From Nitrospirota bacterium (GTDB lineage: Bacteria; Nitrospirota; UBA9217), in assembly GCA_029858565.1 (NCBI GenBank), contig JAOUEV010000008.1:2003-66002 (forward strand): DNA of 64,000 nt, written 5' to 3'. Below are positions 7,198-29,290 of this stretch, one piece after another. Each line of letters begins with the position of its first letter. Position 1 is the first letter of the stretch. The notes beneath the pieces are model-generated. The model ran no database searches and had not been told where the DNA came from. It saw only the letters and a list, made by a program, of their open reading frames with translations. The position numbers and the translations under genes were made by a program.

Positions 7198-7278
7198 TGC
7201 TCCTTTGCAGCCTACGTTCAGCGGCGCCTCACCCTACCTCGTGCCCTCCGGCGCACCGCCTGCCGGATACGGTGGAAT

Positions 7279-12493: not shown

Positions 12494-12528
12494 AGAAAAC
12501 TGCGTGAGACGAACGGCAAGGACGGCTT

Positions 12529-12605: not shown

Positions 12606-12611
12606 TATAAC

Positions 12612-12655
12612 TGCGCGTTTAGTTTTCCATTTTTTTGCACTCAGTTTGCCATTTT
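12612..12655 (+). repeat. Two tandem 22-bp putative transposase-binding sites (Mu R1/R2-like)
   Basis: TGCGCGTTTAGTTTTCCATTTT and TTTGCACTCAGTTTGCCATTTT, 16/22 identical; the first starts 6 bp inside the terminus. Confidence 0.75.
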
Positions 12656-12722
12656 ATAACCCAGAAAGCTCATTTTTTGTATGCTTAACGCCATATGACA
12701 AGTGCTTTATTCAAACTGTAGA

Positions 12723-12956
12723 TCAGGCTTCTTTCTCAAGCCCTTTAACTACCCGTGCCCGATAGTTATTGTATACGGTCTGAAAATTATCGCTGTTTTC
12801 CGTAGATGCGTAGAGGCCCCGCAACTGGTCGAGTAGCAGACTCCTATCCACGCCTGGGTGTTCTGCAAGCATACAAACAATATCGGTTAAGAGTACACCG
12901 ATCGCAGCAGTGGAATCAGCACAGGCAGTAACCGCGCTTTGTGTGTCTTTTTCCAT
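12723..12956 (-). CDS. Small hypothetical protein, last gene of the element's main operon
   Basis: CAGGAGG RBS before ATG 12956; 77 aa. Confidence 0.65.
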   Translation of the reverse strand: MEKDTQSAVTACADSTAAIGVLLTDIVCMLAEHPGVDRSLLLDQLRGLYASTENSDNFQTVYNNYRARVVKGLEKEA

Positions 12957-13011
12957 TTGTGATCCTCCTGGGAACAGCCGACTTGTCACGGTCAATAACG
13001 TGAATTAATAA

Positions 13012-15024
13012 TTATTGTCCGATTCCGAATGCACTTCTAACCGCTGGGCTTGTGTTTGCGAGTTTCAGTAATACGGTGGCAATATATCGCTCACCATCGA
13101 ACTGATGCTTGCCCACCTGCGCGTCCAGCTGAACGCCGGACTGGTTAATAACGCTTATCGAAACGTTTGGCATGTTGCCTACGTCGCCCTTGTTGATTCT
13201 GTCGAGGGCGGCCACGCCCTTGCGCGACACCACGTATTCACCGGTCTGCAGGATAGCGGGACGCTCGTCGGACGATAGCCCTCCCACATGGAACCGGGGG
13301 ATATATCCTCCGCTGTGCATGATCAGCCCGCCGGAATGTTTAAAATAAGGTCCAATAACCGGCGGTTGCCCGTACCCGGATCCTCCTACATTTGCACCTG
13401 GATCACTTATAAGTGCGCCGCCGACAGCGGTTGTTCCCGTTTTATTTTCGGCATTTTTAATACCTGTAATAGCAATCACAGATTGCTGCGCAAGAATATT
13501 TGAAATCGCGCGCGCCACGGAAAGCAAGAAACTTTTAATATATTGCCAGAAGCTCTTAAGTTTACCCGTCATTGCGTCAAAGAAAAATTCAGAGAACGCC
13601 TGTTCCATGCCGCGCGCGGTTTCCTGGGCGATATACACGCCTTCCTGGAAGCGGCTTCGAAGGCTGTCATTATACCGCTTTAAACCTTCGTCAATACCCT
13701 CTTGAAACGTGCCGTCCAACTCCCGCAGCGCCAACCTCAGGTCGGAGATTTTTCTGATGGTGTCATCGATCTCTTTTTGCTTCGCGGCCCGCTGGTTAGG
13801 ATCGTTGATCGGCTTCAGGTTCGCCTGCTGCACGCTGAGCAGCCGTTCCTCGATCCGTAGCCGCTCGCGGGCCGCATCAAGATGGGAAATATCGCGGTTT
13901 TTCTCTGCTATATCGAGGTAGGCCATCTCGCGCATGATCTCCGCTTCTCGCGCTTTCATGGCAACTTCATATTCCAATTGGGATTGTGCTCCCGTACCCC
14001 TGCCGCCTCCTGATCCGCTGAACGATGGATCGGTGCCGGTTCCGCCGCCGGAGAGCGGAGATTCCGCTTTTCCGAAGGCCGCCTTGAAGTACGTTGCGCT
14101 CAGGTTCTTCAGCTTCTCGAAGTCCGCCTTGGTCTTGGCCAGCGTCTCGTCGGAAACGATGCCGACCTTGTTCAAGGCCGTCTGCGCCAGGGTAGCCAGA
14201 CCCATGATGCCGGCGATGCCTCCGCTCATGAGCCCCATGACAATATCCACGGTCCCGAGCGCGAAACTCTTGATGCCGCTGCCGAAGCTCCAGATCGCGC
14301 TGCCGACGGTTTCCTTCAGATCGTTCCACCAGGCCTTGAGCTTCTGCATCTTTTCGGCGTTGTTGCCCTGGACATCGCCGAACTTTTCCATCTGCTTGCC
14401 CGCGTTCTCCATGGCCAGGGCATAGAGGTCCACATCGGTGATGCCCATGGACATGGCCTCGGACAGGAGCTGCACCTGTTCCTTGGAAACAAGACCGTAC
14501 TTCAGCAGCGCCCGCGGCATCTTGTTTGCGATCGCGTCAGTGATCGTCTCGTATGCCGTGCCCACGTCCTCGCCCGTGACTCGCGCGGAGATCCTCGCGG
14601 CCTCCATGATCTTCGTGAGCTGGTCGCCGTTGAGCCCCTGCATCATGCCCTTCACGGCCTTCTGCATGATGTCCGAGTCGTCCACGGTCCCGGCGGCCGC
14701 GCGCTTCATGTTTTCCAGGATCTCGTCCGCGCTCTCTCCGGACGCCTCGGCCACCTGGCGGAAAGACGCCTCGGCCTGCTCGGCCTTGGCTCCCAGCTCC
14801 ATGTACTCCAGCGCCTTGCTGATCGCGACGCCTGCGGCGGCAGCCGCGGCGGTGATGGCGATCCAGTTCTCTTTCATGGACTTCATAAAGGAGCCGGTCT
14901 GCTTGTCGGCCTTCCCGGTCTCGTCGCCGATGCCCTTGATCTGCTTCCCCAACTGGTCAAGGGTCCCCTTGGCCATGTTGTAGGCTTCGATGACGAGCTG
15001 TATTTTCTGGCGGTCGTTCGACAT
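13012..15024 (-). CDS. Phage tail tape-measure protein
   Basis: Ala/Gly-rich helical 670-aa protein; typical TMP N-terminus (IQLVIEAYN..KGTLDQL), central hydrophobic stretch, C-terminal FHVGGLSSDERPAILQTGEYV motif. Confidence 0.85.
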   Translation of the reverse strand: MSNDRQKIQLVIEAYNMAKGTLDQLGKQIKGIGDETGKADKQTGSFMKSMKENWIAITAAAAAAGVAISKALEYMELGAKAEQAEASFRQVAEASGESADEILENMKRAAAGTVDDSDIMQKAVKGMMQGLNGDQLTKIMEAARISARVTGEDVGTAYETITDAIANKMPRALLKYGLVSKEQVQLLSEAMSMGITDVDLYALAMENAGKQMEKFGDVQGNNAEKMQKLKAWWNDLKETVGSAIWSFGSGIKSFALGTVDIVMGLMSGGIAGIMGLATLAQTALNKVGIVSDETLAKTKADFEKLKNLSATYFKAAFGKAESPLSGGGTGTDPSFSGSGGGRGTGAQSQLEYEVAMKAREAEIMREMAYLDIAEKNRDISHLDAARERLRIEERLLSVQQANLKPINDPNQRAAKQKEIDDTIRKISDLRLALRELDGTFQEGIDEGLKRYNDSLRSRFQEGVYIAQETARGMEQAFSEFFFDAMTGKLKSFWQYIKSFLLSVARAISNILAQQSVIAITGIKNAENKTGTTAVGGALISDPGANVGGSGYGQPPVIGPYFKHSGGLIMHSGGYIPRFHVGGLSSDERPAILQTGEYVVSRKGVAALDRINKGDVGNMPNVSISVINQSGVQLDAQVGKHQFDGERYIATVLLKLANTSPAVRSAFGIGQ

Positions 15025-15057
15025 GGGTGTACTCCTTTCAGATAGTTCTACGTATAA

Positions 15058-15498
15058 TTAAACTCGCGAAGATGATCTGCTTTTCTGAAGGGTATATTTG
15101 AGCACGCTGTGTTGATCATCTTCGTTCATTTCTATCAAAATCTGTCTCACTTTTTCAATTAACGCTGTACCTCGAAGCATGCCTGGCATAGCTGATGGAG
15201 TCTCTATATTGTTTCGTACAAAGACATTATAGATGCCTGTCGGAGTCATTCCGTATTTTTTTGAAAGCTTCTGCAGTGTAAATTTGTTGGTATGATAATC
15301 CGCAATGATTTTGTTATCGCGTTCCTTCCTGCGCACGACAGTCAGGCACTCCAGCGTTTTCGGGAAATACACCTGTTCACCACGGAGCTCTGATCCAAGC
15401 TTCACCGTTGCACCGAGGCCGATGATTTTAGCGATCATCTGGTATGTTGGGTGAAGCTCGTTCTCCCGGATGCTAATTTGCTTTTCATCCATCAGCAC
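15058..15498 (-). CDS. Mor/C-family transcription activator (Mu middle-operon regulator-like)
   Basis: IAKIIGLGATVKL..ELRGEQVYFPK dimerisation segment and RDNKIIADY..LQKLSKKYGMT HTH. Confidence 0.8.
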   Translation of the reverse strand: MLMDEKQISIRENELHPTYQMIAKIIGLGATVKLGSELRGEQVYFPKTLECLTVVRRKERDNKIIADYHTNKFTLQKLSKKYGMTPTGIYNVFVRNNIETPSAMPGMLRGTALIEKVRQILIEMNEDDQHSVLKYTLQKSRSSSRV

Positions 15499-15516
15499 TT
15501 TACCTCCACAGTTACT

Positions 15517-16302
15517 TTAGACCGCGCAGTATTCGACACAGACGGTTTCCCGATTTTCGGTTATCAATGTAGGCTCTCCCATGAGCTCCCACCGCAGTTT
15601 TCTAAGGGCAGTAGCTTCAATTCGGGCGACACTGCTTATTGAAAGCCCAGCTTTTACACCAACTTCTTCCGGCATAAGATCACACCAGTATCTAAGAATT
15701 ATTATCTTACGTTCCCTGTCGTTAAGCTCCAGCAACGCTCTGCGAATATTATGGTTGAATGCCGATTTCTCAGCACTGCACTTGGTTTCAGCAGTTCTGA
15801 ATGAATTCCCATTTCTTCGCTTATCGAATATTTGCGGTATTATTGAACTATCCCCATCCGAAACGAACATGTCTTGCCGAGTAGCCGCGTCTTCTTTGTC
15901 GCCCAGAAGCTCATCTAACGAATTATGTTTGTTCTTATGGTAATCTTTGAGGCAGTCAATTATCTGACGGCTAATTGCTGGTTTCGCATAGGCAATAAGC
16001 CGGATCCCTCTTTCTGGATCGAACAGTTTAGCTGCTCTCATTAAACCCTGGCAACCTTCGGCAACCATGTCCATAAATGGCAATCCTGGGCGCCAATACT
16101 TCCTGACGATGAAAATAACGAACTTGATATTTGACTCTACGAGAAGTTCAGCTGCCGCTTCATCTCCGGATTGAGCCCTGCGAGCGATCCTGCTTTCATC
16201 CTCTCGTGATAATACTGGTCTTTGTTTAAGGTCTTCCCGAAGCATCCTGAGTAATTCCCAGTCTCCACCGCCATAACCGGAATTCTGTTTTTCCTCTTTC
16301 AT
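15517..16302 (-). CDS. Element-encoded sigma-70 family RNA polymerase sigma factor
   Basis: Region 1.2 (LSREDESRIARR), region 2 (LVESNIKFV, EGCQGLMRAAKLFDPERG), region 4 HTH (LNDRERKIIILRY..VARIEATALRKLR). Confidence 0.88.
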   Translation of the reverse strand: MKEEKQNSGYGGGDWELLRMLREDLKQRPVLSREDESRIARRAQSGDEAAAELLVESNIKFVIFIVRKYWRPGLPFMDMVAEGCQGLMRAAKLFDPERGIRLIAYAKPAISRQIIDCLKDYHKNKHNSLDELLGDKEDAATRQDMFVSDGDSSIIPQIFDKRRNGNSFRTAETKCSAEKSAFNHNIRRALLELNDRERKIIILRYWCDLMPEEVGVKAGLSISSVARIEATALRKLRWELMGEPTLITENRETVCVEYCAV

Positions 16303-16350
16303 GCGACCTCCCCGAGTGGTAATATCAACCAAGGAAGGATATCCCGCTCC

Positions 16351-16389
16351 AAAAGCCACGCCCTCCTGCCCAGGACGCGCGTGGCTTTT
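16351..16389 (-). terminator. Hairpin with U-tract between the 94-aa gene and the sigma gene
   Basis: AAAAGCCACGC-17 nt-GCGTGGCTTTT. Confidence 0.55.
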
Positions 16390-16673
16390 TATTTTGTCGC
16401 TGCTACGGGGATCTCTTTAAGTCCGTACGATGTTTCACGAATCAATGTTTCCAGTTCCTCGCATTTGGCGTGGGTTGCTTTTTGCAACCGACCAAGAATC
16501 GAAAATACCATTGACCATTCAATATCGATTTTGCGTCCTTCCCCGGAAGACAATGCAGTTATTTCTCCGAGCTTGATCATCGTTTCTATTTCATATAAGT
16601 GGTTTGTAATATCATTGCGCAGATGATCGAGTTTAACGTATGCGTTCTCTTTCTGTTTTGAAAGCTGATTCAT
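16389..16673 (-). CDS. Hypothetical protein (94 aa)
   Basis: GGGGG RBS-like run before ATG; co-oriented in the element operon. Confidence 0.6.
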   Translation of the reverse strand: MNQLSKQKENAYVKLDHLRNDITNHLYEIETMIKLGEITALSSGEGRKIDIEWSMVFSILGRLQKATHAKCEELETLIRETSYGLKEIPVAATK

Positions 16674-16753
16674 TGAAGCCCCCCTTGGTTAAGTTATAGC
16701 CACGCTTCCACCTGACAGCGTGGCTATTGATTTTATTATTTGCTGAACTCGTT

Positions 16754-17875
16754 CTACAGGTTGATCCCGATTGTTTGATACTTTGCTTTTATATCGTCAA
16801 CGGCTTTCTGGATCACAGCTCTGTCCTTGTACGGTCCAGAGAGAGAGCACACTGCTGCTATTTGACCATAGTTATGCTTATCCTCTAAACCTTCAAATGC
16901 TTTGAGGTTGAAGGTCGGTATTGCAAACCTGTCAGCATCGCCCCCCGTCCGCCGAATCGCAAAACCTTCAGCCCTGACTTCCTTCGACAGTCGAGCTGGA
17001 GAACCCATGATCTCATCCAAGGCCGTCAGCTCTTTGAACTTGTCGATGAGTTGAATAGAAAGCTTGATGTATTCCTGACCGACAAGTTCGGCCTGGCCCA
17101 TCAAAAACTCGTTGATGATTTCCTTCCGGCTGGACCGGAGCAGAGTCAGCTCATTCTCGGCTGCATCGAGTTTTCGCTGGAGGCCCGCGATGATTTGCTT
17201 CGCGTTGCCGGCAACCTTGTTGAATTCTTCAAGCGCTGCTTCCCGCGCCGCAATCTGCTCATCAAGCGCTTTGAGGTCTTTTCCCGTCGCAGTGCCCAGA
17301 GAGATGGCTGCAAGGATATCTTCTCTCTCTTGCAGCAGATCGTCTGCGGACTCGGGCACGGCCTGACGGGCCTTCTCGATCGTGCTTGTCTGATCCGAAA
17401 TGAGAGCCTGAAGTTCTGCGACGGTTCTTTCTGCCGCTGCAACATCCTCTTGATACTGAATAAGATCCTCGATGCCGAGTGAATGACCATAATTCGTCAG
17501 TTCTTTTTCGGCGTTCACGAGATCCTGATGTGTGCTCTGCGCGTGCTGCCGGGCATGTGCGGCCACTTCTTTGGCATCCGCAGCAGCCTTCTGAAGTTTG
17601 TCGAATTCATCTTTTTCCCAAGGGGTCATGCGCTCTACATCTTCTGCGTGGTGCCTCCCATTAAGGCGATTCACGCCTTCAATGGTGCTTTTAAATGAGT
17701 AGACCTGTCCTGTCGCCCGTGCTGCAATGTCCTCTTTGTCGTCGGCGACCTTGATAGCAGCAAGACATTTTTCTCTGAGCAACTGCGCACGACGACGAAG
17801 GTCTTCTCTCTTTGCCACCCGTTCCCTGTACGACACCTTCCCTGGGGCATCCTGTACGTCCGCTTTCTTAGCCAT
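16754..17875 (-). CDS. Coiled-coil protein of unknown function (373 aa)
   Basis: AGGAGG RBS; long Ala/Glu/Lys/Gln heptad-like runs. Confidence 0.8.
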   Translation of the reverse strand: MAKKADVQDAPGKVSYRERVAKREDLRRRAQLLREKCLAAIKVADDKEDIAARATGQVYSFKSTIEGVNRLNGRHHAEDVERMTPWEKDEFDKLQKAAADAKEVAAHARQHAQSTHQDLVNAEKELTNYGHSLGIEDLIQYQEDVAAAERTVAELQALISDQTSTIEKARQAVPESADDLLQEREDILAAISLGTATGKDLKALDEQIAAREAALEEFNKVAGNAKQIIAGLQRKLDAAENELTLLRSSRKEIINEFLMGQAELVGQEYIKLSIQLIDKFKELTALDEIMGSPARLSKEVRAEGFAIRRTGGDADRFAIPTFNLKAFEGLEDKHNYGQIAAVCSLSGPYKDRAVIQKAVDDIKAKYQTIGINL

Positions 17876-17968
17876 GTGCTTTCCTCCTATCGTTAATTTG
17901 ATGGTTCGTAAATTCTCACGAATGCTTTAGTGAGGGATTTCCTCGATGTCATCCGTGGAGTTATTTAT

Positions 17969-18178
17969 TTATCGCTTCGGCGATACCGATGCGATGTTTC
18001 GTACAATTTCATCAAGTTCGCTCTGTTCTTCTTTCGACACTTGTGCAGCAAATTCATTGGTATGTTCGCCTTCTGACAGATCAATAAAAAACACAGAGCC
18101 AGGGGACATGGGGACAAAGCGACATCCCGATATCTGGCGAAGTTTTTGTTGAAATTTATGATCGTCTATGCGTATCAT
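17969..18178 (-). CDS. Small hypothetical protein
   Basis: GGAG RBS before ATG 18178; 69 aa. Confidence 0.55.
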   Translation of the reverse strand: MIRIDDHKFQQKLRQISGCRFVPMSPGSVFFIDLSEGEHTNEFAAQVSKEEQSELDEIVRNIASVSPKR

Positions 18179-18230
18179 ATTTTCTCCACGAGGCTGCTGA
18201 TTATTCCCTAACGAGTTTTCTATCGAGCCT

Positions 18231-18599
18231 TTAGAGGGCAAATATATGTTTTGCCGCTCTCGTCAGTGCCAAAAGACGATCCCCAACAGTCGTATCCCTA
18301 CCGAACAGGATGAGATCGCGACGTTTGTCCTCCGGCACCATTTTCGAAGCACCTATTTTCCGAGCTTCCGAGTAGTAGAGCCGATGGCACGAACCGGATC
18401 CAAAACCACAGAAATCCTTCTGCCTCCCGGAAAGAGGCTTTCCACAGCGGCGGCAATGCCTCCCATTTGCCGCTTTATTAGCTGTGCGCAGCTCGCTGGG
18501 GGCCTCAGGGGGAGCAATATGGGGCATGGGGCTACCCTGGCACCCAAAACGCACATTTTCCTCCGTCGTATTCACCCCAGCACTGTCTAAACGTTGCAT
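18231..18599 (-). CDS. Hypothetical protein with putative Zn-finger
   Basis: GAGG RBS; CRRC-GKPL-x5-FC-x5-C motif common in phage early proteins. Confidence 0.6.
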   Translation of the reverse strand: MQRLDSAGVNTTEENVRFGCQGSPMPHIAPPEAPSELRTANKAANGRHCRRCGKPLSGRQKDFCGFGSGSCHRLYYSEARKIGASKMVPEDKRRDLILFGRDTTVGDRLLALTRAAKHIFAL

Positions 18600-18648
18600 T
18601 CCATGTTCCTCTCTACCTATCCGTCTGTAGCCCATCAACAACAGCCGT

Positions 18649-19170
18649 TTAAACGGTATTCGAAACCGGCTTACCCGTGTCCGGCGCGTCCGGTTTTCTT
18701 TCGCGTGCGCCGTCCTTTTTCCGCCTGACCATATTGTTCAATGTATGGATCACCTTCCGGGTTGTGACCGTATCCAGGAACCGAAGGTCTGAAACCTTGA
18801 AATGCCGATCTAAAAACGTGCGCAGGGCCTTTTCTCTTTTTTTATGATCCCTGATATCAACAGCATCACGCCAAAGGGCTTCGATCTTTCGGAGTTGAGA
18901 AGGCTGCGCCATATCTGCCCGATGACCAAGATTTTCAAACCGTTCTTTGCCCTCGAACTTATTCCACACGCCGCGCTCGATCGCGCTGTCTTCGAGTGCC
19001 GTAATGAGCGAGTTGGCTTGTTCGGATGTAAGCTGTTTTGAAGATGCCGCTTCAAAATTGATTGCGAGGGTACCCCGATACTCTTTTTCCGTCATCTTGA
19101 GGGCTGTTTTCAGCGTGTGAATTTTTTTGATCTGCCCTACGTCAATCATCTTATTTGCCGTGTTCAACAT
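18649..19170 (-). CDS. GemA / Mu gp16 family (DUF1018) protein
   Basis: QIKKIHTLKTALKM..YR..L..ASSKQLT and SQLRKIEALW..LRTFL..LRFL motifs. Confidence 0.82.
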   Translation of the reverse strand: MLNTANKMIDVGQIKKIHTLKTALKMTEKEYRGTLAINFEAASSKQLTSEQANSLITALEDSAIERGVWNKFEGKERFENLGHRADMAQPSQLRKIEALWRDAVDIRDHKKREKALRTFLDRHFKVSDLRFLDTVTTRKVIHTLNNMVRRKKDGARERKPDAPDTGKPVSNTV

Positions 19171-19501
19171 TGCCTGCTCCTTTCTCGTTCTTCTGAAACC
19201 AGTAACCTACTGTTCTGGGACATAGTCCAAGTCGCTTCGCTATTTTTTCGGCCGAAATCTTCGACTTTGTTCTGAGCCGCAATGCCAGCCGGTATGCATT
19301 AAGGTGAGGGGCAAGAACTCTAACAGTGTCTCCAGATGGTGTTTCCTGGAGCCAGTAACGAACTGTTCTTGGATTCATACCGATGCGTCGCGCTATTTCA
19401 ATTCCTGTTAACGCTTCACATTTCCTCAATCGCAAGGCTTCGAGATATTTGCTCTGGTGAGATAAATGAGCACGTATGTTACGCAGCCTGTCCTTTCTCA
19501 T
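19151..19501 (-). CDS. Tandem-HTH DNA-binding protein in the MuB position
   Basis: Two similar HTHs: GIEIARRIGMNPRTVRYW and AEKIAKRLGLCPRTVGYW; ATG 4 bp after the transposase stop. Confidence 0.7.
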   Translation of the reverse strand: MRKDRLRNIRAHLSHQSKYLEALRLRKCEALTGIEIARRIGMNPRTVRYWLQETPSGDTVRVLAPHLNAYRLALRLRTKSKISAEKIAKRLGLCPRTVGYWFQKNEKGAGNVEHGK

Positions 19502-19505
19502 GCGA

Positions 19506-22112
19506 TCAGTCCTCTTCAGAGAAAAAATATCCCGAGCCACGCTTAGTTAATACATAGCGTTCCGCTCCGACCTTTCGGAGTTTGATTCGCAGTCTTGTTA
19601 CGTGAACATCTATTGCCCGCAGCTCCATGGATAGGCCGTTTCGTGAGATGGCTTCCTTGATCGCGGCTCGTCCAAAAACTTTGCCTCGGTTTTCCATGAG
19701 AAGGCGAAGGAGTCTGAACTCCATGGGGAGGAGATCAACAATCTTGCCTTCAGCCACAACTCGCTCACGGTCCAGATCCATTAGTAGCGGGCCGGCGCTG
19801 ACTATTGATTTTTCAATAGCCGCGTTATATTCTTTCTTTTTCTCCAGGTAATCGGCCATGTCTCTTTGATATTGTGCTTCCGCATCTGCTTCATCACTCT
19901 CAAAAATGATAAGCGGTTTTTCCGGCCGAATCGGTCGTGAATCCTCCAGATATGAAATTTCCTGTAAAGTACTGTAGCCATCGGTGCCGGTTAGCTGCAT
20001 CTCGCGATCACGTCGAACGACTTCATCCATGGCAGTTTTTGCGAGACGAAGCACTTTGACTTTTTTCTTGTCGGTTGTCGTGCAACCGCGAGCAAGATTC
20101 ACTGCTACTATTCCTGCGGCAAGATGTTCTACGGTTTCAGATGGCGCAACGGCTCGATTGTCCTTCAAATATGATTTCGCGATTTTCCTTGTGCGGTGTT
20201 TATGGGCCAATGCTGCCTTGAGTTCCGCTCTTTCTATGTCCGTTTTAGCGAGCGCCTGGACTGCTCCCACCAAGTTGGCTTTCCCCAGGTACTCATCCGT
20301 TGTGGCATCAAAGACCCAAGCAGTCTGGTAGGCTTGCACATCCCGGCGTAAATAGACTTTGGTCCCTGTGAGGGCATACATGAATTCGCCAAAGTAAGTG
20401 ACCTGGAGTTCACTATCTCGCACGCCATTTCTGCCGATCGTGACTTCCTTACTGGTTCTCTGACAAAATAGTTTTAATGCATCGGCTCCGACCTTTCGCA
20501 TCTCCGATCGTTCAGCATTCCATACTTCATCCGGACATCTGCCCTGGAGCACCTTTCCATTTGACGGCATTTTATTAGCGACGGTCATGATATAGACATC
20601 CATCAACTTTAGATATTCGTCGTAGGAGAGAATGCGGCCGCTTTTAATTTCTCCGTCAAGGCTATCCGGTCTTTCGGTGACATTGCCGCCACGGTAGCCT
20701 GGCATGTGTTTGCTGAACCATTCCTTGTTGCGCAGAAAATCTCGTTCAATCGGTTTGGTCTGAGCATTGTATGGTAGTGCAAAATGAGGAGTGACGCCGA
20801 GAAGCGAAAGCATACTGGTCGTTTTCTTCTCGTCAACCGTCACCCGGCCGCGCTTCCGGCCTCCGGCAAAATCGCGCGATTTATAATCACGGCCATTGTC
20901 GATATAAAGCTCTTCCGGCAATCCGTTTTCTTTTACTGTGTAATAGAAGGATTGAAATATATGGTCGCTATTCGGCGGCTCAGGATGATGCAGCCAGCCA
21001 AGCCACTTGGAAGTTTTATAATCGCGCCATGCCGTGATCCATGGAAAACATGCCTTGCCGTTCGGCAGCATTACCGCGACATCGACTTGAGCGTGATCCC
21101 CTACAATGACTTGGCCGGGTTTTATCTGGCTGTAATCACGGTCCACATGCGATGCATATTTTCTATTCCAGGCCTCCGGACCAAAGCGAGCCAAAAAGAT
21201 TGAGCTTTTCGGTATTTCACGCTCGACGCGGCGAAGAAATGCGGACGGTGAGGGGAATCCTTCAAGTTGAAGCTGCGGATTGAGAGTCCGTGCATATCCG
21301 AGGGTACGAGTCCAACACGATTTAACGGAGGGCGCGCCTTCCTTCAGATATGCATTTTTGAAGTACTTATAATGGTCATCCTGCACTTTGCTGTTTCCGG
21401 CAGAATGACCGTATTTTGCGAGCAGTCCGGCAATGCCTTGCTCAGCATATTTATTTCGTGCATCGAGAACCGCGTCATAGGATGTTTTCAGGTCAGGCTG
21501 AGTGCCGTTCCACTCAGCTACAAATTGCCTGAGGCTTGCACCCTTGAGTCCAGCAGAGGCGCGAATGATTTGAAGATATTTATCAGCCTTCTGCCGAGCC
21601 CAGCCTGGCGCTGCCGCGTAGAGTTCACTCTCTATCTCTTCGTCGGTCATGGGCCGCAGCGCTGTGCCGATGTTTACGACTTCGCCTGTTGCGGTGTCGA
21701 TTAACTCGCCGCTTGCGATTTCTATATTCTTATTGGCATTCTCTGCGGTGATTGATAAAGAGTGCGCCGGTACAGAAGCAGATGGCACCTGACAAGGAGG
21801 AGGCTGCATCTGTACCGGCGCGAGTTGATCAGGGGTGCGGTCGCGAACCCGCTCCTGATCTATAGAAGATGCAACAGATGACCACAAAGGAGGTTTGTTT
21901 TCGCCATCTGTCACATCCATGCTGCCAGGTTGTAAGAAGAGTGCCTTGATGTCTTCGGCAAGACCATCAGTCTCAAATTCTTCGGCAACCTTATGGTTAA
22001 CGATTCTGGTACCGCACGACTGCCAACCTTCCTTTAGCTTGCGCTTTCGGATGGCATGCCAGGTGACGCCTTTTCGTTCGGCTATTTCTTTCAGTGTCGC
22101 CTTCATGCTCAT
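19506..22112 (-). CDS. MuA-like DDE transposase with C-terminal OmpR/PhoB-type winged-helix domain
   Basis: Mu-type N-terminal HTH (TLKEIAERKG..KEGW), catalytic D (GDHAQVD), D (IDNGRDY), E (KPIERDF), Mu-transposase C-terminal region, then EFRLLRLLMENRGKVF..IDVHVTRLR..TKRGSGY. Confidence 0.92.
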   Translation of the reverse strand: MSMKATLKEIAERKGVTWHAIRKRKLKEGWQSCGTRIVNHKVAEEFETDGLAEDIKALFLQPGSMDVTDGENKPPLWSSVASSIDQERVRDRTPDQLAPVQMQPPPCQVPSASVPAHSLSITAENANKNIEIASGELIDTATGEVVNIGTALRPMTDEEIESELYAAAPGWARQKADKYLQIIRASAGLKGASLRQFVAEWNGTQPDLKTSYDAVLDARNKYAEQGIAGLLAKYGHSAGNSKVQDDHYKYFKNAYLKEGAPSVKSCWTRTLGYARTLNPQLQLEGFPSPSAFLRRVEREIPKSSIFLARFGPEAWNRKYASHVDRDYSQIKPGQVIVGDHAQVDVAVMLPNGKACFPWITAWRDYKTSKWLGWLHHPEPPNSDHIFQSFYYTVKENGLPEELYIDNGRDYKSRDFAGGRKRGRVTVDEKKTTSMLSLLGVTPHFALPYNAQTKPIERDFLRNKEWFSKHMPGYRGGNVTERPDSLDGEIKSGRILSYDEYLKLMDVYIMTVANKMPSNGKVLQGRCPDEVWNAERSEMRKVGADALKLFCQRTSKEVTIGRNGVRDSELQVTYFGEFMYALTGTKVYLRRDVQAYQTAWVFDATTDEYLGKANLVGAVQALAKTDIERAELKAALAHKHRTRKIAKSYLKDNRAVAPSETVEHLAAGIVAVNLARGCTTTDKKKVKVLRLAKTAMDEVVRRDREMQLTGTDGYSTLQEISYLEDSRPIRPEKPLIIFESDEADAEAQYQRDMADYLEKKKEYNAAIEKSIVSAGPLLMDLDRERVVAEGKIVDLLPMEFRLLRLLMENRGKVFGRAAIKEAISRNGLSMELRAIDVHVTRLRIKLRKVGAERYVLTKRGSGYFFSEED

Positions 22113-22177
22113 CCTGTGTTTTAATAGTCGTTGCGTACTCGCTCAAAATACGATACAATCGTGTTCATTGCGGGCAA

Positions 22178-22426
22178 CTATGCCTTCTGTTGATTGCCAT
22201 CAGGCCACAGCTCGGAGATCCTCATCCGAAGTGCGGCCGCAATGGAGCGGCGTATTCGCTGCCCGCGCCTGCGCCCGTGAATAACAAAGGACACATATGC
22301 TTTTGTGACATGTTCTCTTTCTGCGATTTGGAGGCCAGTAACTCCCCTTAACACCATTATTGATTTTATGTTCCTCGCCCCCAGGACGCCGGAACGTGTG
22401 CTTTTTTTAAGTAGCTTTTTCGACAT
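22178..22426 (-). CDS. Ner/Cro-like HTH regulator
   Basis: 82 aa, IAAALRMRISELWP C-terminus resembles Mu Ner; lies between repressor and transposase. Confidence 0.75.
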   Translation of the reverse strand: MSKKLLKKSTRSGVLGARNIKSIMVLRGVTGLQIAEREHVTKAYVSFVIHGRRRGQRIRRSIAAALRMRISELWPDGNQQKA

Positions 22427-22477
22427 GTGTTTTTCCACCCTTGCTCCGTATGAATCGCTCCTGATGGCAATGTAGTA

Positions 22478-22548
22478 GTTAACCGATATACTATGGAATC
22501 TAACAACAAGCGGCTTGGGGTAAGCCACATTGTGTTAACCTGTATATC
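22478..22548. promoter_or_regulatory. Candidate operators in the divergent ner/repressor switch
   Basis: Direct repeat GTTAACC..TATA at 22478 and 22534. Confidence 0.4.
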
Positions 22549-22578
22549 ATGTTGTAGGTATGAATATAGTCACAAAAT

Positions 22579-23043
22579 ATGACAATGTCAACAACAAAAT
22601 TCATATTAACTGACATTATTAAACGCATCAAACAGCGCGAATTAATCCGCAGTGACGTTAAGGTCGCTGAATTACTAGGATTAGAGCGCACTGCATTTGC
22701 TGAGAGAAAGCGCAGGAATAGTATTCCGTACAAAGAATTAGTCATATATTGTGAACGAACCGGAACCAATATGCATTATCTTCTTACCGGAGAAGGTTTG
22801 GATATTAATGCTGCGCTTAGAACAGTTCCGTTAGAACTGCGAAATAAACAGCTGTACTACATTGGAAGATGGGTGGATGTGTTTTGGGAAAAAGCCACAG
22901 AAGAAGAGCGGGCATGGCTTTATGTGGAACTCCAAAGGGTATTCCCTGAATTTAAAAAATGGATACAGGAAGAAGAGGCAGAACTTGAAAGGTCTTTCAA
23001 TGAATTTTCGAACACTGAAAAACCGGAAGGTGGCGATCAATGA
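22579..23043 (+). CDS. Phage CI-type repressor (HTH)
   Basis: SDVKVAELLGL..RNSIPY..MHYLLTGEG, typical of the phage CI-repressor HTH family; divergent from ner. Confidence 0.82.
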   Translation: MTMSTTKFILTDIIKRIKQRELIRSDVKVAELLGLERTAFAERKRRNSIPYKELVIYCERTGTNMHYLLTGEGLDINAALRTVPLELRNKQLYYIGRWVDVFWEKATEEERAWLYVELQRVFPEFKKWIQEEEAELERSFNEFSNTEKPEGGDQ

Positions 23044-23666
23044 AGATAGTGATCTTCTGCATCATCACGACAATGTTTTTTTCGGGATGCGCGTCGAAGA
23101 GAACTTTCACTCAAGATGAATGGACCAGGATCACCACTCGGGAATATAGTGGTAGGTCAGCCACGGAAGTTTTTGATGCAATCGAAAAGGTTCTTCGCCT
23201 TGCCGATGAATCTGATGTGAAAATATACCGGTGGCCGGATCGCCTTATAGCAACGAGGTCATATCTTATCTACGCTGTGCTCGCAGCAACGAACGGACTA
23301 TATACATTCGACATTCATACAGTGCCAGGAGAATCAGGCACAAAAGTCGTTGCTATTATTACGCTCACCGCAGGAACAATAGCAGGAGCGCCGACAGCCT
23401 ACAATCCAACGATTATCACGACCCCTTCAGCGGGCGGCATGGTTATGGATAATCCGGAAACCTATGATCTGTTCTTCTCCCGAGTAAAGTATTTCCTCAA
23501 CGGGGGAGTCTGGGTAACCTGTGAGCGTGCCACAGAAATGTACCGAGATAGCCCATCCGGTGCACTCGATGGTTTATGTTTAATGAGTGATGATGACCTT
23601 CCGGAAGAAATGCGGCAGTCTACCGAAGGAAACAACTCCTGGCGATCTCGCCGCGCGCGTCGTTGA
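23040..23666 (+). CDS. Lipoprotein cargo, unknown function
   Basis: Signal peptide with lipobox FSG-C; overlaps the repressor stop by 4 bp. Confidence 0.75.
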   Translation: MKIVIFCIITTMFFSGCASKRTFTQDEWTRITTREYSGRSATEVFDAIEKVLRLADESDVKIYRWPDRLIATRSYLIYAVLAATNGLYTFDIHTVPGESGTKVVAIITLTAGTIAGAPTAYNPTIITTPSAGGMVMDNPETYDLFFSRVKYFLNGGVWVTCERATEMYRDSPSGALDGLCLMSDDDLPEEMRQSTEGNNSWRSRRARR

Positions 23667-23692
23667 TGTTTTAGTATTTAAAGGAGACATTC

Positions 23693-24007
23693 ATGGAACT
23701 GACAAAGCCAAGAGCGCAGGAGAAAAAGGTAAGAGATAAGATCATCGCAGCGCTACGAGAATATAGACCACAGGATGACATAGCTTTCTCAAAATTCACA
23801 AACGATAGAATCCCTGATGAGTTCTACCATAAAGAAATAACGAAAGCAGGGATTGAACAGGGATTAGAGTGTCTTCGTCTAATCAATAATATGAGCGGTC
23901 TCTCAGCAGGAGACTTTGATCTGCTCACGCTTTTGGAACACTACATTTTAAATCTTGATTCCCGCGATGCAATAAACAAGGTTCTCAATGCAAGGCGTGG
24001 ACGCTGA
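23693..24007 (+). CDS. Hypothetical cargo protein (104 aa)
   Basis: AAGGAG RBS; co-oriented with repressor and lipoprotein. Confidence 0.7.
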   Translation: MELTKPRAQEKKVRDKIIAALREYRPQDDIAFSKFTNDRIPDEFYHKEITKAGIEQGLECLRLINNMSGLSAGDFDLLTLLEHYILNLDSRDAINKVLNARRGR

Positions 24008-24114
24008 TTCTTTTTGGAACTGTGTACCTGGATCCCGACTGCTCATTACGCTTACATTCAGTGATGATCGTAGCGCCGCCTGCTCTCCCAGCCGATACCG
24101 TCCATATTCCTTGC

Positions 24115-24163
24115 AGGTTACATAGGTCACATAGGTTACAATGGGGCTATGTAACCAGTTACA
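24115..24163. repeat. Cluster of GTTACA/TGTAAC motifs
   Basis: AGGTTACAT-AGGTCACAT-AGGTTACAA (3 x 9 bp) then palindrome TGTAAC-CA-GTTACA. Confidence 0.8.
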
Positions 24164-24256
24164 AAGGTGAGTGCCGGAACAAGCGCGCTTAAATATTAAA
24201 AAGCCTTGCGTTAAACGATATTTAAACGGTCATCAAAATTTATCGCGCGATTTGAG

Positions 24257-24414
24257 AAAGTTGAAGACTGCCCGCGCAATAATGTAAAAAACGTGTACTT
24301 CCGGAAAAAAATGGCAAACTGATCCCGCCGCGTTTTTTTCTCGATTCCATCCTTAATATCAATACGTTATAAGCACACCTCCCTTTGTAACCAATAAAGA
24401 GAATTACCTGAAAA
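24257..24414 (-). repeat. Three putative transposase-binding sites (Mu L1/L2/L3-like), inverted relative to the left-end sites
   Basis: Reverse complement of 24308-24329 shares TCAGTTTGCCATTTT (15/15) with the second left site; 24257-24278 is 16/22 to the first left site; 24393-24414 is 12/22 to the second left site at the same offset from the terminus. Confidence 0.7.
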
Positions 24415-24420
24415 AGCATA

Positions 24421-24425
24421 GTAGA
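24421..24425. other. Right copy of target-site duplication GTAGA
   Basis: Matches 12601-12605 and is followed by the GGG completing the REP stem. Confidence 0.8.
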
Positions 24426-24446
24426 GGGCAGAAAATTTATCGTTGT

Positions 24447-24463
24447 TGTAATCTTCCTGTAAC
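24447..24463 (+). promoter_or_regulatory. Pho-box-like direct repeat in the pstS promoter
   Basis: TGTAAT (24447) and TGTAAC (24458) at 11-bp spacing about 55 bp upstream of the pstS ATG. Confidence 0.6.
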
Positions 24464-24515
24464 ATTCAGCGGTTATAACATTTCCATGATAAACTCATCA
24501 AGGAGGCATATACAT

Positions 24516-25523
24516 ATGAAGCATCTGTTGATCGCGATTGCGATTCTTTCGGCCTTAACCCTTTCCCCGGCAGCCCACGCCATCGAGACCCTGAACGGCG
24601 CTGGAGCCACGTTCCCCTATCCGGTCTACTCGGCCTGGGCCTATGACTACAGCAAGGTGGCGGGTATTCAGCTCAACTACCAGTCGATCGGTTCCGGCGG
24701 GGGTATCAAGCAGATCTCGGAGCGTACCGTGCATTTCGGCGCGTCCGACAAGCCGCTTACCCCCGAGGAACTTAAAAAGGACAACCTGCTCCAGTTCCCC
24801 GCGGTCATCGGCGGCGTGGTCCTGGTCGTGAACGTTCCGGGGGTGAAGTCCGGAGACCTGAAGCTTGATGGTTCCGCGACCTGCGGCATCTTCCTTGGGG
24901 AGATCAAGACCTGGAACGATCCCAGGATCAAGACCCTGAACCCGGGGCTCGGCCTGCCTGACTCGGCCATCACCGTGGTGCGCCGGTCCGACGGCTCCGG
25001 AACCACCTCCATATTCACCGACTATCTCACCAACGCCTGCCCGGCATGGAAAGCAAAGGTCGGCAGCGGCACCTCGGTCAACTGGCCCATAGGCATCGGC
25101 GGCAAAGGCAATGAAGGCGTGGCGAACTACGTGAAACGTTCGGCCAACTCCATCGGCTATGTGGAGTTCGCTTATGCAAAGCAGAACAAGATGGTCCACA
25201 CCAAGCTCAAGAACAAGGCCGGCTCGTTCGTTGAGCCGAACTTCGAGAGCTTCGAGGACGCGGCAAAGACCGGAGACTTTGATCCGAAAAAGGATTTTTT
25301 CCTCTGGCTCACCAACGCGCCGGGAAAGAACGCCTGGCCCATTGCCGGTGCGACCTTCATCCTGCTGGCCGGCGACAAGAAGGACGTGAACACCCGGGTT
25401 GTCAAGTTCTTTGACTGGGCATTCCAGAACGGCGATGCCAAGGCAAAGGAGCTGGTCTATGTGCCTCTGCCCAAGACGCTCAAGGACAAGGTGCGGCAGT
25501 ACTGGAAAATAAAGGGAATATAG
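24516..25523 (+). CDS. pstS: Phosphate ABC transporter substrate-binding protein
   Basis: GAGATFP, YQSIGSGGG, RSDGSGTT, IGYVE motifs; AAGGAGG RBS. Confidence 0.96.
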   Translation: MKHLLIAIAILSALTLSPAAHAIETLNGAGATFPYPVYSAWAYDYSKVAGIQLNYQSIGSGGGIKQISERTVHFGASDKPLTPEELKKDNLLQFPAVIGGVVLVVNVPGVKSGDLKLDGSATCGIFLGEIKTWNDPRIKTLNPGLGLPDSAITVVRRSDGSGTTSIFTDYLTNACPAWKAKVGSGTSVNWPIGIGGKGNEGVANYVKRSANSIGYVEFAYAKQNKMVHTKLKNKAGSFVEPNFESFEDAAKTGDFDPKKDFFLWLTNAPGKNAWPIAGATFILLAGDKKDVNTRVVKFFDWAFQNGDAKAKELVYVPLPKTLKDKVRQYWKIKGI

Positions 25524-25610: not shown

Positions 25611-25767
25611 TCTCGCGCAAAGCCGCCAAGCCGCAAAGAAAGACCTATGCTTCGGTTTAAAAACGGACTTGGTAATTTCAGGTCGTCTTCGTAGAAGTAA
25701 AAAACGTATGTTGAGATTCCAGAACAAGATTCAGGTTTCCTTTGCGTCTTTGCGGCTTTGCGCGAGA
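25611..25767. repeat. REP-like inverted doublet (TCTCGCGCAAAGCCGC...GCGGCTTTGCGCGAGA) between pstS and pstC
   Basis: Inverted pair at 25611-25640 and 25740-25767; same family at 37859-37951. Confidence 0.7.
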
Positions 25768-25831
25768 CAGCCCTTGGCAGTTGATTTTCGCGCGGTCTTT
25801 GGTGAAACTGTTACAAGGATTTGAGGTCCCC

Positions 25832-26773
25832 GTGCCCATCTTCTCGAAAAAGAACTCCATCGACATCGCCTTCTCCACGATCACCGCGGTCGCGGCCCTG
25901 ACCGTCCTCGTCGTGATCTGCGGCATCGTCGCGGTTCTCTTCAAGGAGTCCTGGCCTGCTATCCAGAAGTTCGGGTTCTTCAGGTTCCTGTTCACGGTCG
26001 AGTGGAACCCCGTGACCTCGGTCTTCGGAGCTGCCAGCGCTGTCTACGGCACGATCGTGACGACCGGCATCGCCCTGCTCATAGCATTTCCGACGGCGGT
26101 AGGCATCGCCATCTTCGTGACCGAGATCGCGCCGAATGCGCTCAAGGGCCCCATCGGAGCGGCCATCGAGCTGCTCGCGGCCATACCGAGCATCATCTAC
26201 GGCATGTGGGGCCTTTTCACCCTCGCGCCGATCATGTCGCAGTACATTGAGCCTTTTCTCCAGAAGTATCTGGGCAACCTTCCGTTATTTAAAACGCTGC
26301 TCGCGGGAACGCCCATGGGCATCGACCTTTTGACAGCAAGCGTGATCCTGTCGATCATGATCATCCCCTTTACCGCCAGCATCGCCCGCGACGCGTTCAA
26401 CCTCACGCCGGGAGTGGTGAAGGAATCAGCCTATGCCATGGGCGCAACGCAGTGGGAAGTGGTAAAGGACGTGGTCATCCCCCATGCAAAGCTCGGGGTC
26501 TTCGGCGGTGCGGCGCTGTCCCTGGGCAGGGCGCTCGGCGAGACCATGGCCGTAGCTTTCGTGCTCGGGAACAACCACAAGATCGCAACCTCGCTCTTTG
26601 ACGCGGCCTCCACGATCACCGTGACCCTGGCGAACGAGTTCGCTGAAGCGGACAGCGATATGTATCTGTCGTCGCTTTATTATCTCGCGCTGGTGCTCTT
26701 CGGATTGAGTTTCATCACCCTGGCGGTGGCGAAGCTGTTCCTGCTCCGGGCCGAGGGAAAACATAGCCGTTGA
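25832..26773 (+). CDS. pstC: Phosphate ABC transporter permease
   Basis: ELLAAIPSIIYG, ESAYAMGAT.WE, GRALGETMAV; GTG start with GAGG RBS. Confidence 0.95.
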   Translation: MPIFSKKNSIDIAFSTITAVAALTVLVVICGIVAVLFKESWPAIQKFGFFRFLFTVEWNPVTSVFGAASAVYGTIVTTGIALLIAFPTAVGIAIFVTEIAPNALKGPIGAAIELLAAIPSIIYGMWGLFTLAPIMSQYIEPFLQKYLGNLPLFKTLLAGTPMGIDLLTASVILSIMIIPFTASIARDAFNLTPGVVKESAYAMGATQWEVVKDVVIPHAKLGVFGGAALSLGRALGETMAVAFVLGNNHKIATSLFDAASTITVTLANEFAEADSDMYLSSLYYLALVLFGLSFITLAVAKLFLLRAEGKHSR

Positions 26774-26784
26774 GGACCATTTTC

Positions 26785-26900
26785 ACCACGGAGTCACGGA
26801 GACACGGAGAACGGCAGCATCATCGACTGATATCCGGTCTTTATCTTTAAACACAAGTCCAAGGAAGTTGTTTCACTCCGTGTCGACCTGCCTCCGTGGT
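26785..26900. repeat. REP-like inverted doublet (CACCACGGAG...CTCCGTGG)
   Basis: CACGGAG triplet and inverted CTCCGTG copies between pstC and pstA. Confidence 0.55.
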
Positions 26901-26917
26901 TGATTAGTTTTGACGTT

Positions 26918-27760
26918 ATGAAAAGAGAACACTACAGAAAGATCATCAACTACTCCGCCCTCTCCCTGAGCGGCCTGGCGGCCCTGGCAGGGCTGTTCTG
27001 GCTCGTCTTCATCCTCGGGGACGTACTGGTCCACGGCATCGGCGCGCTCAGGTTCGAGCTGTTCCTGCAGGACCCGGTGCCCGCGGGCATGACCGGCGGT
27101 GGATTGCGGAACGCCTTTATCGGCCAGCTCATGATCACCTTCTTCGCAACGCTCATCGGCGTGCCGGTCGGCGTTCTCGGGGGGACTTTCCTTGCCGAGT
27201 ACGCCCGGGGAACCACGTTCGCCCGGGTGATCAGCGTGCTTTCGGACATCATGGTGAGCGTGCCATCCATCGTGATCGGCGCGTTCGTGTACGCGGTCCT
27301 GGTCAAGCCGCTGCACCACTTCAGCGGATGGGCCGGCGCGGTCGCACTGGCGGTCATCATGATACCGGTGGTGCTCAGGACGACCGAGGACATGCTGACC
27401 CTCGTGCCCTGGACCGTCCGCGAAGCTGCCTTCGCCCTCGGCGCTCCCTATTACAAAGTGATACTGCAGGTCGTGTACCGGGGCGCCGCGACCGGGATCC
27501 TGACCGGCGTGCTTCTCTCCATGGCCCGCGTGGCAGGCGAGACAGCACCGCTCCTGTTCACGTCCTTTAACAACACCTTTTACTCGACCGATATGAACGG
27601 CCCCGTGGCATCGCTCACGGTCACGATCTTTCAGTACGCCATGGGTCCTTATGATGACTGGCACCAGCAGGCCTGGGCAGCGTCCTTTGTCATCACGCTC
27701 TTCATCCTGATGCTCACGGTCTCGGGCAGGATGCTGCTTAAATGGAGGTACAAGAAGTGA
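26918..27760 (+). CDS. pstA: Phosphate ABC transporter permease
   Basis: [27 protein letters not shown] motifs. Confidence 0.95.
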
Positions 27761-28521
27761 CGCTACCTGTTGATCTTGAGGTAAAAAACCTCAACTTCTA
27801 CTACAACGGAAATGCCCATGCCTTGCGGGATATTTCCCTGCCCGTTTACAAGAACCGGGTGACAGCGTTGATCGGGCCGTCAGGCTGCGGGAAGACCACT
27901 CTGCTCCGCTGCTTTAACCGCATGCACGACCTCTACCCGCGCCACCGGTACGAGGGGGAGATCCTGTTCGAGGGGCGCAACATCCTCTCGGACAAGGAGG
28001 ACCTGATCAACCTGCGCGGCCGGATCGGCATGGTCTTCCAAAAGCCCACGCCCTTTCCCATGTCCATTGCCGAGAACATCGCCTACGGCCTCCGGCTCAA
28101 GGGCATCAAGAGCAGGACCGAGCTGTCCGGCAGGATCGAACAGGCCCTGAAGCACGCGGCGCTCTGGAACGAGGTGCGGGACAAATTGAACAACAGCGCC
28201 TACGACCTCTCGGGCGGCCAGCAGCAGCGGCTCGTGATCGCCCGCGCACTTGCCGTGGAGCCTGAAGTCTTGCTGTTCGACGAGCCGACATCGGCGCTGG
28301 ACCCGATCTCTACCGGCAAGATCGAGGAGCTGGTGGCGGAGCTCAAGCAGGATGTGACCATCATCATTGTGACCCATAACATGCAGCAGGCCGCGCGGGT
28401 TTCCGACATGACCGGGTTCATGTACCTTGGCGATCTTGTCGAGTTCGACACAACGGAAAAGATCTTCACCGCTCCGGAAAAGAAACAGACCGACGATTAT
28501 ATTACGGGAAGATTTGGGTAA
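27757..28521 (+). CDS. pstB: Phosphate ABC transporter ATP-binding protein
   Basis: [35 protein letters not shown]. Confidence 0.96.
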
Positions 28522-28609
28522 ATCCAGTGCGGAATGCGGAGTGCGAAGTGCGGAGCTGACCCCTTACCCCTAACGACTTACGCCTTACAGGTTTACGAAG
28601 GAGAGAACA

Positions 28610-29290
28610 ATGGCTCATCAGAAAGAACAGGACATCGAAGCGCTCAAGGAACGGATCCTCAAGATGGGAAGCCTCGTGGAAGATGCTATCCGCAAGGCGG
28701 TCAAGGCGCTCGTTGAGCGCGACCGGGACCTTGCCCTGGGGGTGATCGACGGCGACGCCATTGTGAACACGCTGGACGTGGAGATCGAGGAGGAGTGCAT
28801 CAGGTTTCTCGCCATCTGGCAGCCCTCGGGCAGCAACCTCCGTTTCGTGACCACGGCGATCAAGATCATCACGGACCTGGAGCGTATGGGAGACCTGGCC
28901 GTGGACATCTGCGAGCGCTCCGTGGAGCTCTTGGACGAACCGCAGCTGAAGCCCTACATCGACATCCCGCGCATGGCAGAGGCCAGCCAGAAAATGTTGA
29001 AGGACAGTCTCGATGCCTTCGTGGCCCGGGACGCGGACAAGGCCCTCGCGGTCTGCGCTGCCGATGATTTTGTGGACAACCTGAACAGCCAGATCTTCAA
29101 CGAGCTCCTGATCTACATGCTCCAGGACCCCAAGAACATCTCCCGCGCGGTCCGGCTCTCCTATATCACCAAATATCTCGAGCGGGTGGCCGACCATGCC
29201 ACGAACATCGCCGAGATGGTGGTCTACATGGTCAGGGGCAAGGTGATCAGGCACATGGCCTGCGAGATCCGGAACTCCGACAAGACCTGA
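28610..29290 (+). CDS. phoU: Phosphate signalling complex protein
   Basis: DLERMGDLAVDI and LERVADHATNIAE repeats. Confidence 0.95.
   Translation: MAHQKEQDIEALKERILKMGSLVEDAIRKAVKALVERDRDLALGVIDGDAIVNTLDVEIEEECIRFLAIWQPSGSNLRFVTTAIKIITDLERMGDLAVDICERSVELLDEPQLKPYIDIPRMAEASQKMLKDSLDAFVARDADKALAVCAADDFVDNLNSQIFNELLIYMLQDPKNISRAVRLSYITKYLERVADHATNIAEMVVYMVRGKVIRHMACEIRNSDKT

Follow-up and report, generated by a model that had tools for sequence, protein, structure and literature searches.

Mu is the textbook case of near-random transposition, in which the choice of target is left to MuB, a nonspecific target-capturing ATPase. Site-specific transposition is known to be reached by other routes, either through separate selector proteins (TnsD/TniQ in Tn7) or through guide RNAs (CASTs, IS110). 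The DDE transposase of Tn7 is distantly related to the MuA type, and TnsB also bears the PF09299 domain. In engineered fusions, such as ISY100-Zif268 and transposases tethered through Gal4 or zinc fingers, insertion is biased to a short fixed distance from the binding site, and engineered transposase and integrase fusions are usually leaky. In the searchable literature, we found no natural fusion of MuA with a DNA-binding domain and no Mu-like element targeted to pstS.

Here, we describe a Mu-type element of a Nitrospirota bacterium whose transposase ends in a PhoB-type DNA-binding domain and whose insertion site lies at the upstream edge of a putative Pho operator. The locus is contained in a stretch of 64,000 nucleotides (assembly GCA_029858565.1, contig JAOUEV010000008.1, positions 2,003 to 66,002 of the forward strand). 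We refer to this whole stretch as the window and number positions from its first letter.

Junction of the Element with the pstS Promoter

As read from its sequence, window segment 24421-24515 is the junction of the repressor-side end of a Mu-type element with a putative PhoB-dependent pstS promoter. The first-pass annotation had described here a Pho-box-like repeat that begins 21 bp beyond the target-site duplication (TSD), followed by a TATAAC hexamer, a ribosome-binding site (RBS), and the pstS start codon, and rereading 24100-24800 returned the same coordinates throughout. The direct repeat occupies 24447-24463 on the forward strand and consists of TGTAAT (box A, 24447-24452) and TGTAAC (box B, 24458-24463) with an 11-bp period. 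On the same strand follow the −10 hexamer TATAAC (24474-24479), which lies 10 nt past box B and has no accompanying −35 hexamer, the RBS AAGGAGG (24500-24506, from reading of the sequence), and the ATG of pstS at 24516. The right copy of the TSD, the 5-bp GTAGA at 24421-24425, flanks the repressor-side (c) end of the element, and the gap from there to box A is exactly 21 bp (24426-24446). This gap contains a weak phased half-site at position −11, TTTATC (24436-24441, forward strand), where the family consensus is TTTAAT. The pstS start at 24486 given in the list of open reading frames is an in-frame ATG farther upstream that has no RBS. The pstS gene for the phosphate-binding protein is intact (24516-25523, forward strand; NCBIfam PRK10918, 401 bits), as are pstC, pstA, pstB, and phoU (25742-29290, forward strand).

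The left copy of GTAGA, at 12601-12605, falls within a REP-like hairpin, in its 3′ arm. When the two flanks of the element are rejoined, a REP-family hairpin, CTGCCCTCT...AGAGGGCAG, is restored (−22.9 kcal/mol), of which the genome has three other copies. Rebuilding of the hairpin thus fixes both element boundaries independently.

Other repeats occur in the vicinity. Two short repeat families, with gatccccgatggaatcattcgggg... and ccctcacccNNccctctcccc...gagggg hairpins, are dispersed across many genomes of the phylum, and the element interrupted one copy (window 12526-12605). To the left of the element and outside it, window 12377-12493 holds a noncoding phased array of ∼10 repeats with a GCGACAG core, which is not the TGTAAY motif.

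A Mu-Type Element Without MuB

The TSD-bounded element is 11,815 bp long (12606-24420) and Mu-like in gene content. Its minus strand encodes a tape-measure-like ORF, Mor, a sigma-70 family protein, two ORFs of no assigned family, GemA, a small double-HTH protein, an 868-aa MuA-type transposase, and a ner-like gene; a CI-like repressor and two ORFs of no assigned family are on the plus strand. The sigma-70 family gene, at 15517-16359 beside Mor, is also found in sister elements and is unusual for Mu-like elements.

The usual MuB slot is occupied by the small double-HTH protein (19151-19540, minus strand). None of the element ORFs matches an AAA family, and no frame longer than 34 aa contains a Walker A motif; we conclude that MuB is absent from the element. 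The TnsA, TnsC, and TniQ/TnsD families are likewise missing among the element ORFs. Terminase, portal, and capsid genes were sought in the same ORFs and not found, leaving the tape-measure-like ORF (PF09718, 23.9 bits) as the sole virion-type gene, and with one such gene in 11.8 kb, the element is not a complete phage. The closest relatives of the tape-measure-like ORF (47-51% identity) belong to Mu-like phages of full size, which have genes for terminase, tube, and tail (L051, L053, and L055). Should the small elements be satellites, phages of this type might act as their helpers.

The far end of the element begins 5′-TATAACT..., and the c end closes with ...AAAAAGCATA-3′. Read inward, the c-end terminus (24382-24420, minus strand) is 5′-TATGCTTTTTCAGGTAATTC...GGTTACAAAGG, in fuller form 5′-TATGCTTTTTCAGGTA...GGTTACAAAGG, and it is kept in sister elements. 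The termini are common to G001, L029, L032, L035, and L052, whose transposases carry the same fusion, and to L049, a relative whose transposase does not. As fixed by TSDs (window 12606/24420; L032 7171/20633; L049 6558/17083), they read TATAAC.../...GCATA and are thus 5′-TA...TA-3′, not TG...CA. Fusion and nonfusion relatives alike have TA...TA termini, and Mu and most DDE elements have TG...CA. The far-end terminal region (12606-12660, forward strand) contains two AGTTT(T/G)CCATTTT repeats, which are putative end-binding sites of the transposase.

The c end also holds a cluster of GTTACA/TGTAAC hexamers (24117-24163), which share their core with the pstS boxes but are spaced by 9 bp. All five TGTAAC/GTTACA hexamers of the element fall within the last 300 bp of this end (24117-24163 and 24386); the expectation for the 11.8-kb element is ∼5.8, spread over its length. 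Three of them belong to 9-bp tandem units of the form GGT(T/C)ACATA; a palindrome is made up of two. Equivalent clusters are present in L032 (7425-7450), L038 (8060-8110), and L052 (150-215). The hexamers may serve as operators for the repressor or as an enhancer, or they may be bound by PhoB or by the transposase domain. The repressor-side operon (22579-24420, forward strand) is directed at pstS, and its last ORF ends at 24007. From 24007 to the element end, prediction gave no terminator-like site on the plus strand, and read-through into pstS is therefore possible in the orientation seen in the window.

The Transposase Ends in a PhoB-Type Winged Helix

The transposase (868 aa; 19506-22112, minus strand) matches PF02914 (55.6 bits), PF09039 (33.1 bits), PF09299 (22.8 bits), and phrog_310 (271.7 bits), and carries PF00486 at its C terminus (61.8 bits against a cut-off of 26.2). 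This winged-helix domain, residues 767-868 (19509-19814, minus strand), is the proposed target selector. Its affinity is with PhoB: among NCBIfam families it matches TIGR02154 (PhoB) best, in the DNA-binding part, and the best PDB match by sequence is E. coli PhoB (1QQI/1GXP, E 1.4e-11). A single-sequence model (pLDDT 78) shows the topology expected of such a domain, a beta sheet with three helices and a wing, and is closest in fold to 1GXQ/1GXP. The domain shares 44-51% identity with PhoB-like regulators of the family, some of which are encoded beside pstS. The receiver domain PF00072 is absent from the 868-aa protein, and the winged helix comes after the transposase core.

In alignment with host PhoB, the recognition helix of the domain has two substitutions, T194A and R200T, and equivalents of PhoB V197, H198, R201, R203, and the wing residue R219 are retained. 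For the roles of these residues we rely on 1GXP, taking T194 and R200 to contact DNA in E. coli PhoB and R201, R203, and R219 to be the DNA-contact arginines. Given the two changed positions in the recognition helix, the specificity of the domain could differ from that of host PhoB.

A search of 5.8 billion proteins returned 718 relatives of the transposase. Among the best 120 of these, PF00486 is attached to a MuA core in 8, and the remaining matches are MuA proteins of ∼650 aa that lack PF00486. The L052 transposase (2337-5033, 898 aa) is only 29% identical overall to the window protein. It is a mosaic, with a similar N-terminal region of ∼110 residues and a similar C-terminal PhoB-like domain around a catalytic core that is ∼25-30% identical, and this pattern suggests that terminal modules exchange between Mu-type transposase lineages. 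In L032, the transposase as called (P0007) is missing most of the N-terminal region, and pstS is still the target.

The fusion clade is rare, as indicated by the few matches in genome searches: among 64 genomes of the family and 401 of the phylum, only the window genome (G000) and G001 were positive, and G001 was also the only close relative in genome contigs. The C-terminal 205-residue alignment retrieved only ordinary response regulators from metagenome contigs (29-36% identity) and no match from viral contigs.

The Repeat as a Putative Pho Box

Pho promoters have an established layout in which a −35 is replaced by direct repeats of 11-bp period, set 10 bp ahead of the −10 hexamer. The window promoter has this layout, with 11-bp direct repeats, 10 bp to the −10, no −35, and a Pho-regulon gene downstream; a sigma-70 −35/−10 pair was looked for in the pstS promoter region and not found. 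We aligned 14 pstS upstream regions, taken from 11 family genomes, the second pstS of the window genome (contig C2), and two metagenomic loci, anchoring each on the hexamer that precedes the −10 by 10 nt. The consensus is TGTAAc-N5-TGTAACAaT-N7-TATAa, in which TGTAAY-N5-TGTAAY ends 10 bp short of the −10. The array extends to as many as four phased half-site positions when a weaker TTTAAT (−11) and remnants of TnTnAC (−22) are counted; the window promoter is weak at −11 and has no half-site at −22.

Strict matches to TGTAAY-N5-TGTAAY number one in the 3.9-Mb genome, the window site itself (0.73 expected anywhere). With a 33-nt matrix trained on 11 pstS promoters, all from other genomes, only two sites in the whole genome exceed 14 bits, namely its two pstS promoters (31.3 and 25.9 bits). 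PhoB-like regulators are encoded by the host (TIGR02154 matches of 290 and 284 bits), and the one on C2 carries the recognition helix of E. coli PhoB, ERTVDVHIRRLR. We limit the PhoB assignment to pstS promoters, because a 20-nt box matrix applied to the wider Pho regulon gave six weak matches genome-wide, of which none besides pstS was clearly upstream of a phosphate gene. The region upstream of the C2 phoB-like gene contains GTTAC-type hexamers without the tandem arrangement. Conservation, phasing, and position across the pstS promoters of the family bear out the earlier assignment of the repeat as the putative Pho box of this lineage. The alignment thereby provides independent comparative evidence for Pho box identity in an uncultured Nitrospirota family.

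Independent Insertions at One Offset

Most contigs with fusion relatives were recovered by exact-protein look-ups, and L052 was recovered through its tape-measure gene. All of the fusion elements come from a few related uncultured Nitrospirota MAGs and metagenomes, three of them from one deposited assembly. Five have a readable pstS junction. In the window, the c end is next to pstS, GTAGA is present on both sides, and the TSD starts 26 bp from box A. In G001, which belongs to the same genus and is split over contigs L019 and L038, the far end is next to pstS, the duplication is GCGCC (found on both contigs), and the distance is 26 bp. L029 has its c end next to pstS with CTTAT at 26 bp and an RBS and pstS-like start downstream. 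The far end faces pstS in L032/L033 (GATTG on both sides, 25 bp) and in L052 (TATAT, one side only, 25 bp), where pstSCAB-phoU follows and the TA-rich junction carries an ambiguity of ∼2 bp in placement.

In all five elements, 20-21 bp separate the TSD from box A. The distance from the TSD to the −10 is 52-53 bp, and that to the start codon takes values between 87 and 103. Since the distance to the boxes and the −10 is steady and that to the start codon is variable, the reference point is the box/−10 core and not the gene. The first-pass annotation had expected both the distance and the orientation to be constant among homologous elements. The distance proved to be so, with the TSD starting 25-26 bp from box A in five elements; a fixed orientation was not seen, the c end being proximal in the window and L029 and the far end in G001, L032, and L052.

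For L031, L035, and L036, the c flank alone is available and the far junctions are missing. The c flank of L035 stops exactly at the position that corresponds by homology to −25..−21 of the empty promoter of G014. The c flanks of L031 and L036/37 contain CheY-like genes, and such genes lie directly upstream of pstS in G014, G024, G015, and C2 of the window genome. By sequence, these three flanks are consistent with the same pstS site. Among the fusion elements recovered, none was found away from it.

The upstream neighbors of the occupied sites vary (DUF5362/amylase, a 440-aa ORF, and DUF3047), and the occupied pstS genes of the window and G001 are paralogous (identity to G001, 79.8% for C2 and 74.8% for the window). 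The occurrence of both orientations, together with the differences in duplications, neighbors, and pstS paralogues, marks these as independent insertions. The second pstS of the window genome, on C2, is unoccupied, and empty sites are also present in related genomes.

The second pst locus of the window genome (G000 contig C2, ∼1017-7300) includes a PhoB-like regulator and CheY-like genes, and its pstS promoter has three phased boxes, TGTAAT, CGTAAT, and TGTAAC. The window genome has one transposase copy only. The L029 flanks (at 128 and 9079) share no 5-bp duplication, reading ATAAG and ACCGT; in the far flank is a match to a gene of lipid-synthase type, which in L031 lies ∼4 kb farther upstream of the site. 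The flanks of L029 are consistent with an adjacent deletion by intramolecular replicative transposition.

The nearest nonfusion relatives, L049 and L051, have a MuB-like AAA_22 gene immediately after the transposase. L049 is the one fully bounded nonfusion control. With the same termini and a 5-bp duplication on both sides (AAATC), it is inserted between unrelated genes, not beside pstS, and no box pair occurs in 22 kb around it.

How the Site May Be Chosen

We think it likely that elements of this clade select their own site, with the fused PhoB-type domain binding the Pho boxes and positioning the transpososome at the upstream edge of the operator. The MuB partner would have been lost, and the transposase would bear the C-terminal PhoB-type winged helix in its stead. 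Bound to the Pho boxes, the fused domain would hold the assembled transpososome such that the two strand transfers, 5 bp apart, are placed 25-26 bp upstream of box A. A transpososome that is two-fold symmetric at the target would allow either element end to face pstS. The operator, the −10, the RBS, and the operon stay on the gene side, so that the site would be a safe harbor. We infer that the domain binds the boxes and sets the offset, and that regulation of pstS is left unharmed.

The domain is tied to the target by two comparisons: L052, in which a similar domain on a divergent core goes with the same offset, and the contrast with L049. Two unrelated transposase cores with the same domain at the same site would make the selector a portable module. 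The cluster of the same hexamer in the c end is a point against, as the domain might mainly serve end or enhancer binding.

Host PhoB might instead be the landmark. Phosphorylated PhoB would sit on the boxes, and either the transposase domain would dock beside it, using the head-to-tail contacts by which PhoB effector domains line up on tandem half-sites, or the transpososome would prefer the PhoB-induced bend; targeting would then depend on phosphate starvation. Docking would suit a transposase domain that is PhoB-like in sequence and fold, the weak phased −11 and −22 positions of the family promoters could seat an extra subunit, and the TSD lies at the upstream edge of the phased array. However, the window itself offers no half-site at −22, and the retained equivalents of R201, R203, and R219 suggest that the domain binds DNA on its own. 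Direct binding would account for the same observations, and we regard a host-provided landmark as unlikely. It is quite unlikely that the site is chosen by a different element protein or by A/T-rich DNA structure, with the C-terminal domain serving in regulation or in binding to the ends or an enhancer. Such a division of labor would agree with the position of all TGTAAC/GTTACA hexamers of the element in the final 300 bp of its c end, with the A/T-rich tracts between the TSD and box A in most targets, and with the several HTH proteins that the element encodes. Yet the spacer sequences are poorly conserved, whereas the offset is counted from the boxes; the repressor-side genes vary among elements; and L052, which has little in common with the others beyond the N- and C-terminal transposase regions, keeps the same offset. 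The double-HTH protein was considered as a clade-specific selector and ruled out, because it is also present in the MuB-bearing, nontargeted L049, where it follows MuB (38% identity).

The pattern might also have arisen with no targeting at all, from one vertically inherited insertion or from random insertions filtered by selection. The hosts are related Nitrospirota, and they would tolerate insertions that leave the promoter whole. Selection, however, cannot yield 1-bp precision, and empty sites are found in related genomes. If insertion were uniform over only the 100 bp upstream of the boxes, four more events in the same 2-bp interval would have a probability of about (2/100)^4 = 1.6e-7. A single ancestral insertion is excluded by the two orientations and by the different duplications, upstream genes, and pstS paralogues. 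We consider an origin without targeting very improbable.

Returning to site selection by the fused domain, we lean toward viewing the protein as a natural self-targeting Mu-type transposase, which captured the DNA-reading domain of PhoB, dropped MuB, and homes to an operator at single-base resolution.

Discussion

The element shares with Mu the MuA-type domain set (PF02914, PF09039, and PF09299), the 5-bp duplication, repeated end-binding sites (putative here), and the c-like repressor, ner-like, GemA, and Mor genes. It differs from Mu in having no MuB or other ATPase, in its TA...TA termini, in the absence of a virion module, and in the extra PhoB-type domain. Moreover, whereas Mu inserts nearly at random, insertion of the element is site-specific.

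The resemblance to Tn7 lies in the fixed offset, ∼two helical turns from the recognized sequence, beside a conserved gene that is left intact. In contrast to Tn7, the element is without TnsA, TnsC, and TniQ/TnsD, and its proposed selector is in cis on the transposase rather than a separate protein acting via an ATPase. Its orientation is not fixed, and its landmark is a promoter operator, not a coding sequence. With no TnsA, TnsC, or TniQ, no ATPase, and variable orientation, membership of the Tn7-like elements was rejected. The proposal in the first-pass annotation of a safe-harbor site comparable to that of Tn7 therefore stands in one respect and falls in another: the offset is fixed, and the boxes, the −10, the RBS, and pstSCAB-phoU are kept on the gene side, but Tn7 does not serve as a model of the mechanism, given that TnsA, TnsC, TniQ/TnsD, and an ATPase are all lacking. 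The PhoB-type domain of the transposase, here the candidate selector, was not connected with the site in that annotation.

The effector domain of E. coli PhoB is the best match of the transposase domain in both sequence and fold, and E. coli PhoB likewise acts at 11-bp repeats located 10 bp upstream of the −10. Unlike PhoB, the transposase has no receiver and hence no control by phosphorylation, and its recognition helix has the two substitutions described above. The E. coli Pho box has the half-site TGTCAY, compared with TGTAAY here. Engineered fusions are artificial, whereas the fusion in this element would be natural, evolutionarily maintained, and apparently exclusive in its targeting.

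If the fused domain does select the site, a MuB-less Mu-type element that inserts within 1 bp beside an operator would represent a third natural route to site-specific transposition. It would be a natural counterpart of the engineered fusions in a compact one-protein format that is testable and possibly retargetable, and exchange of the domain could redirect the element. It may also be asked whether phosphate signaling is exploited by the element: given the hexamers in its own end, its activity or regulation might be coupled to the phosphate-starvation response.
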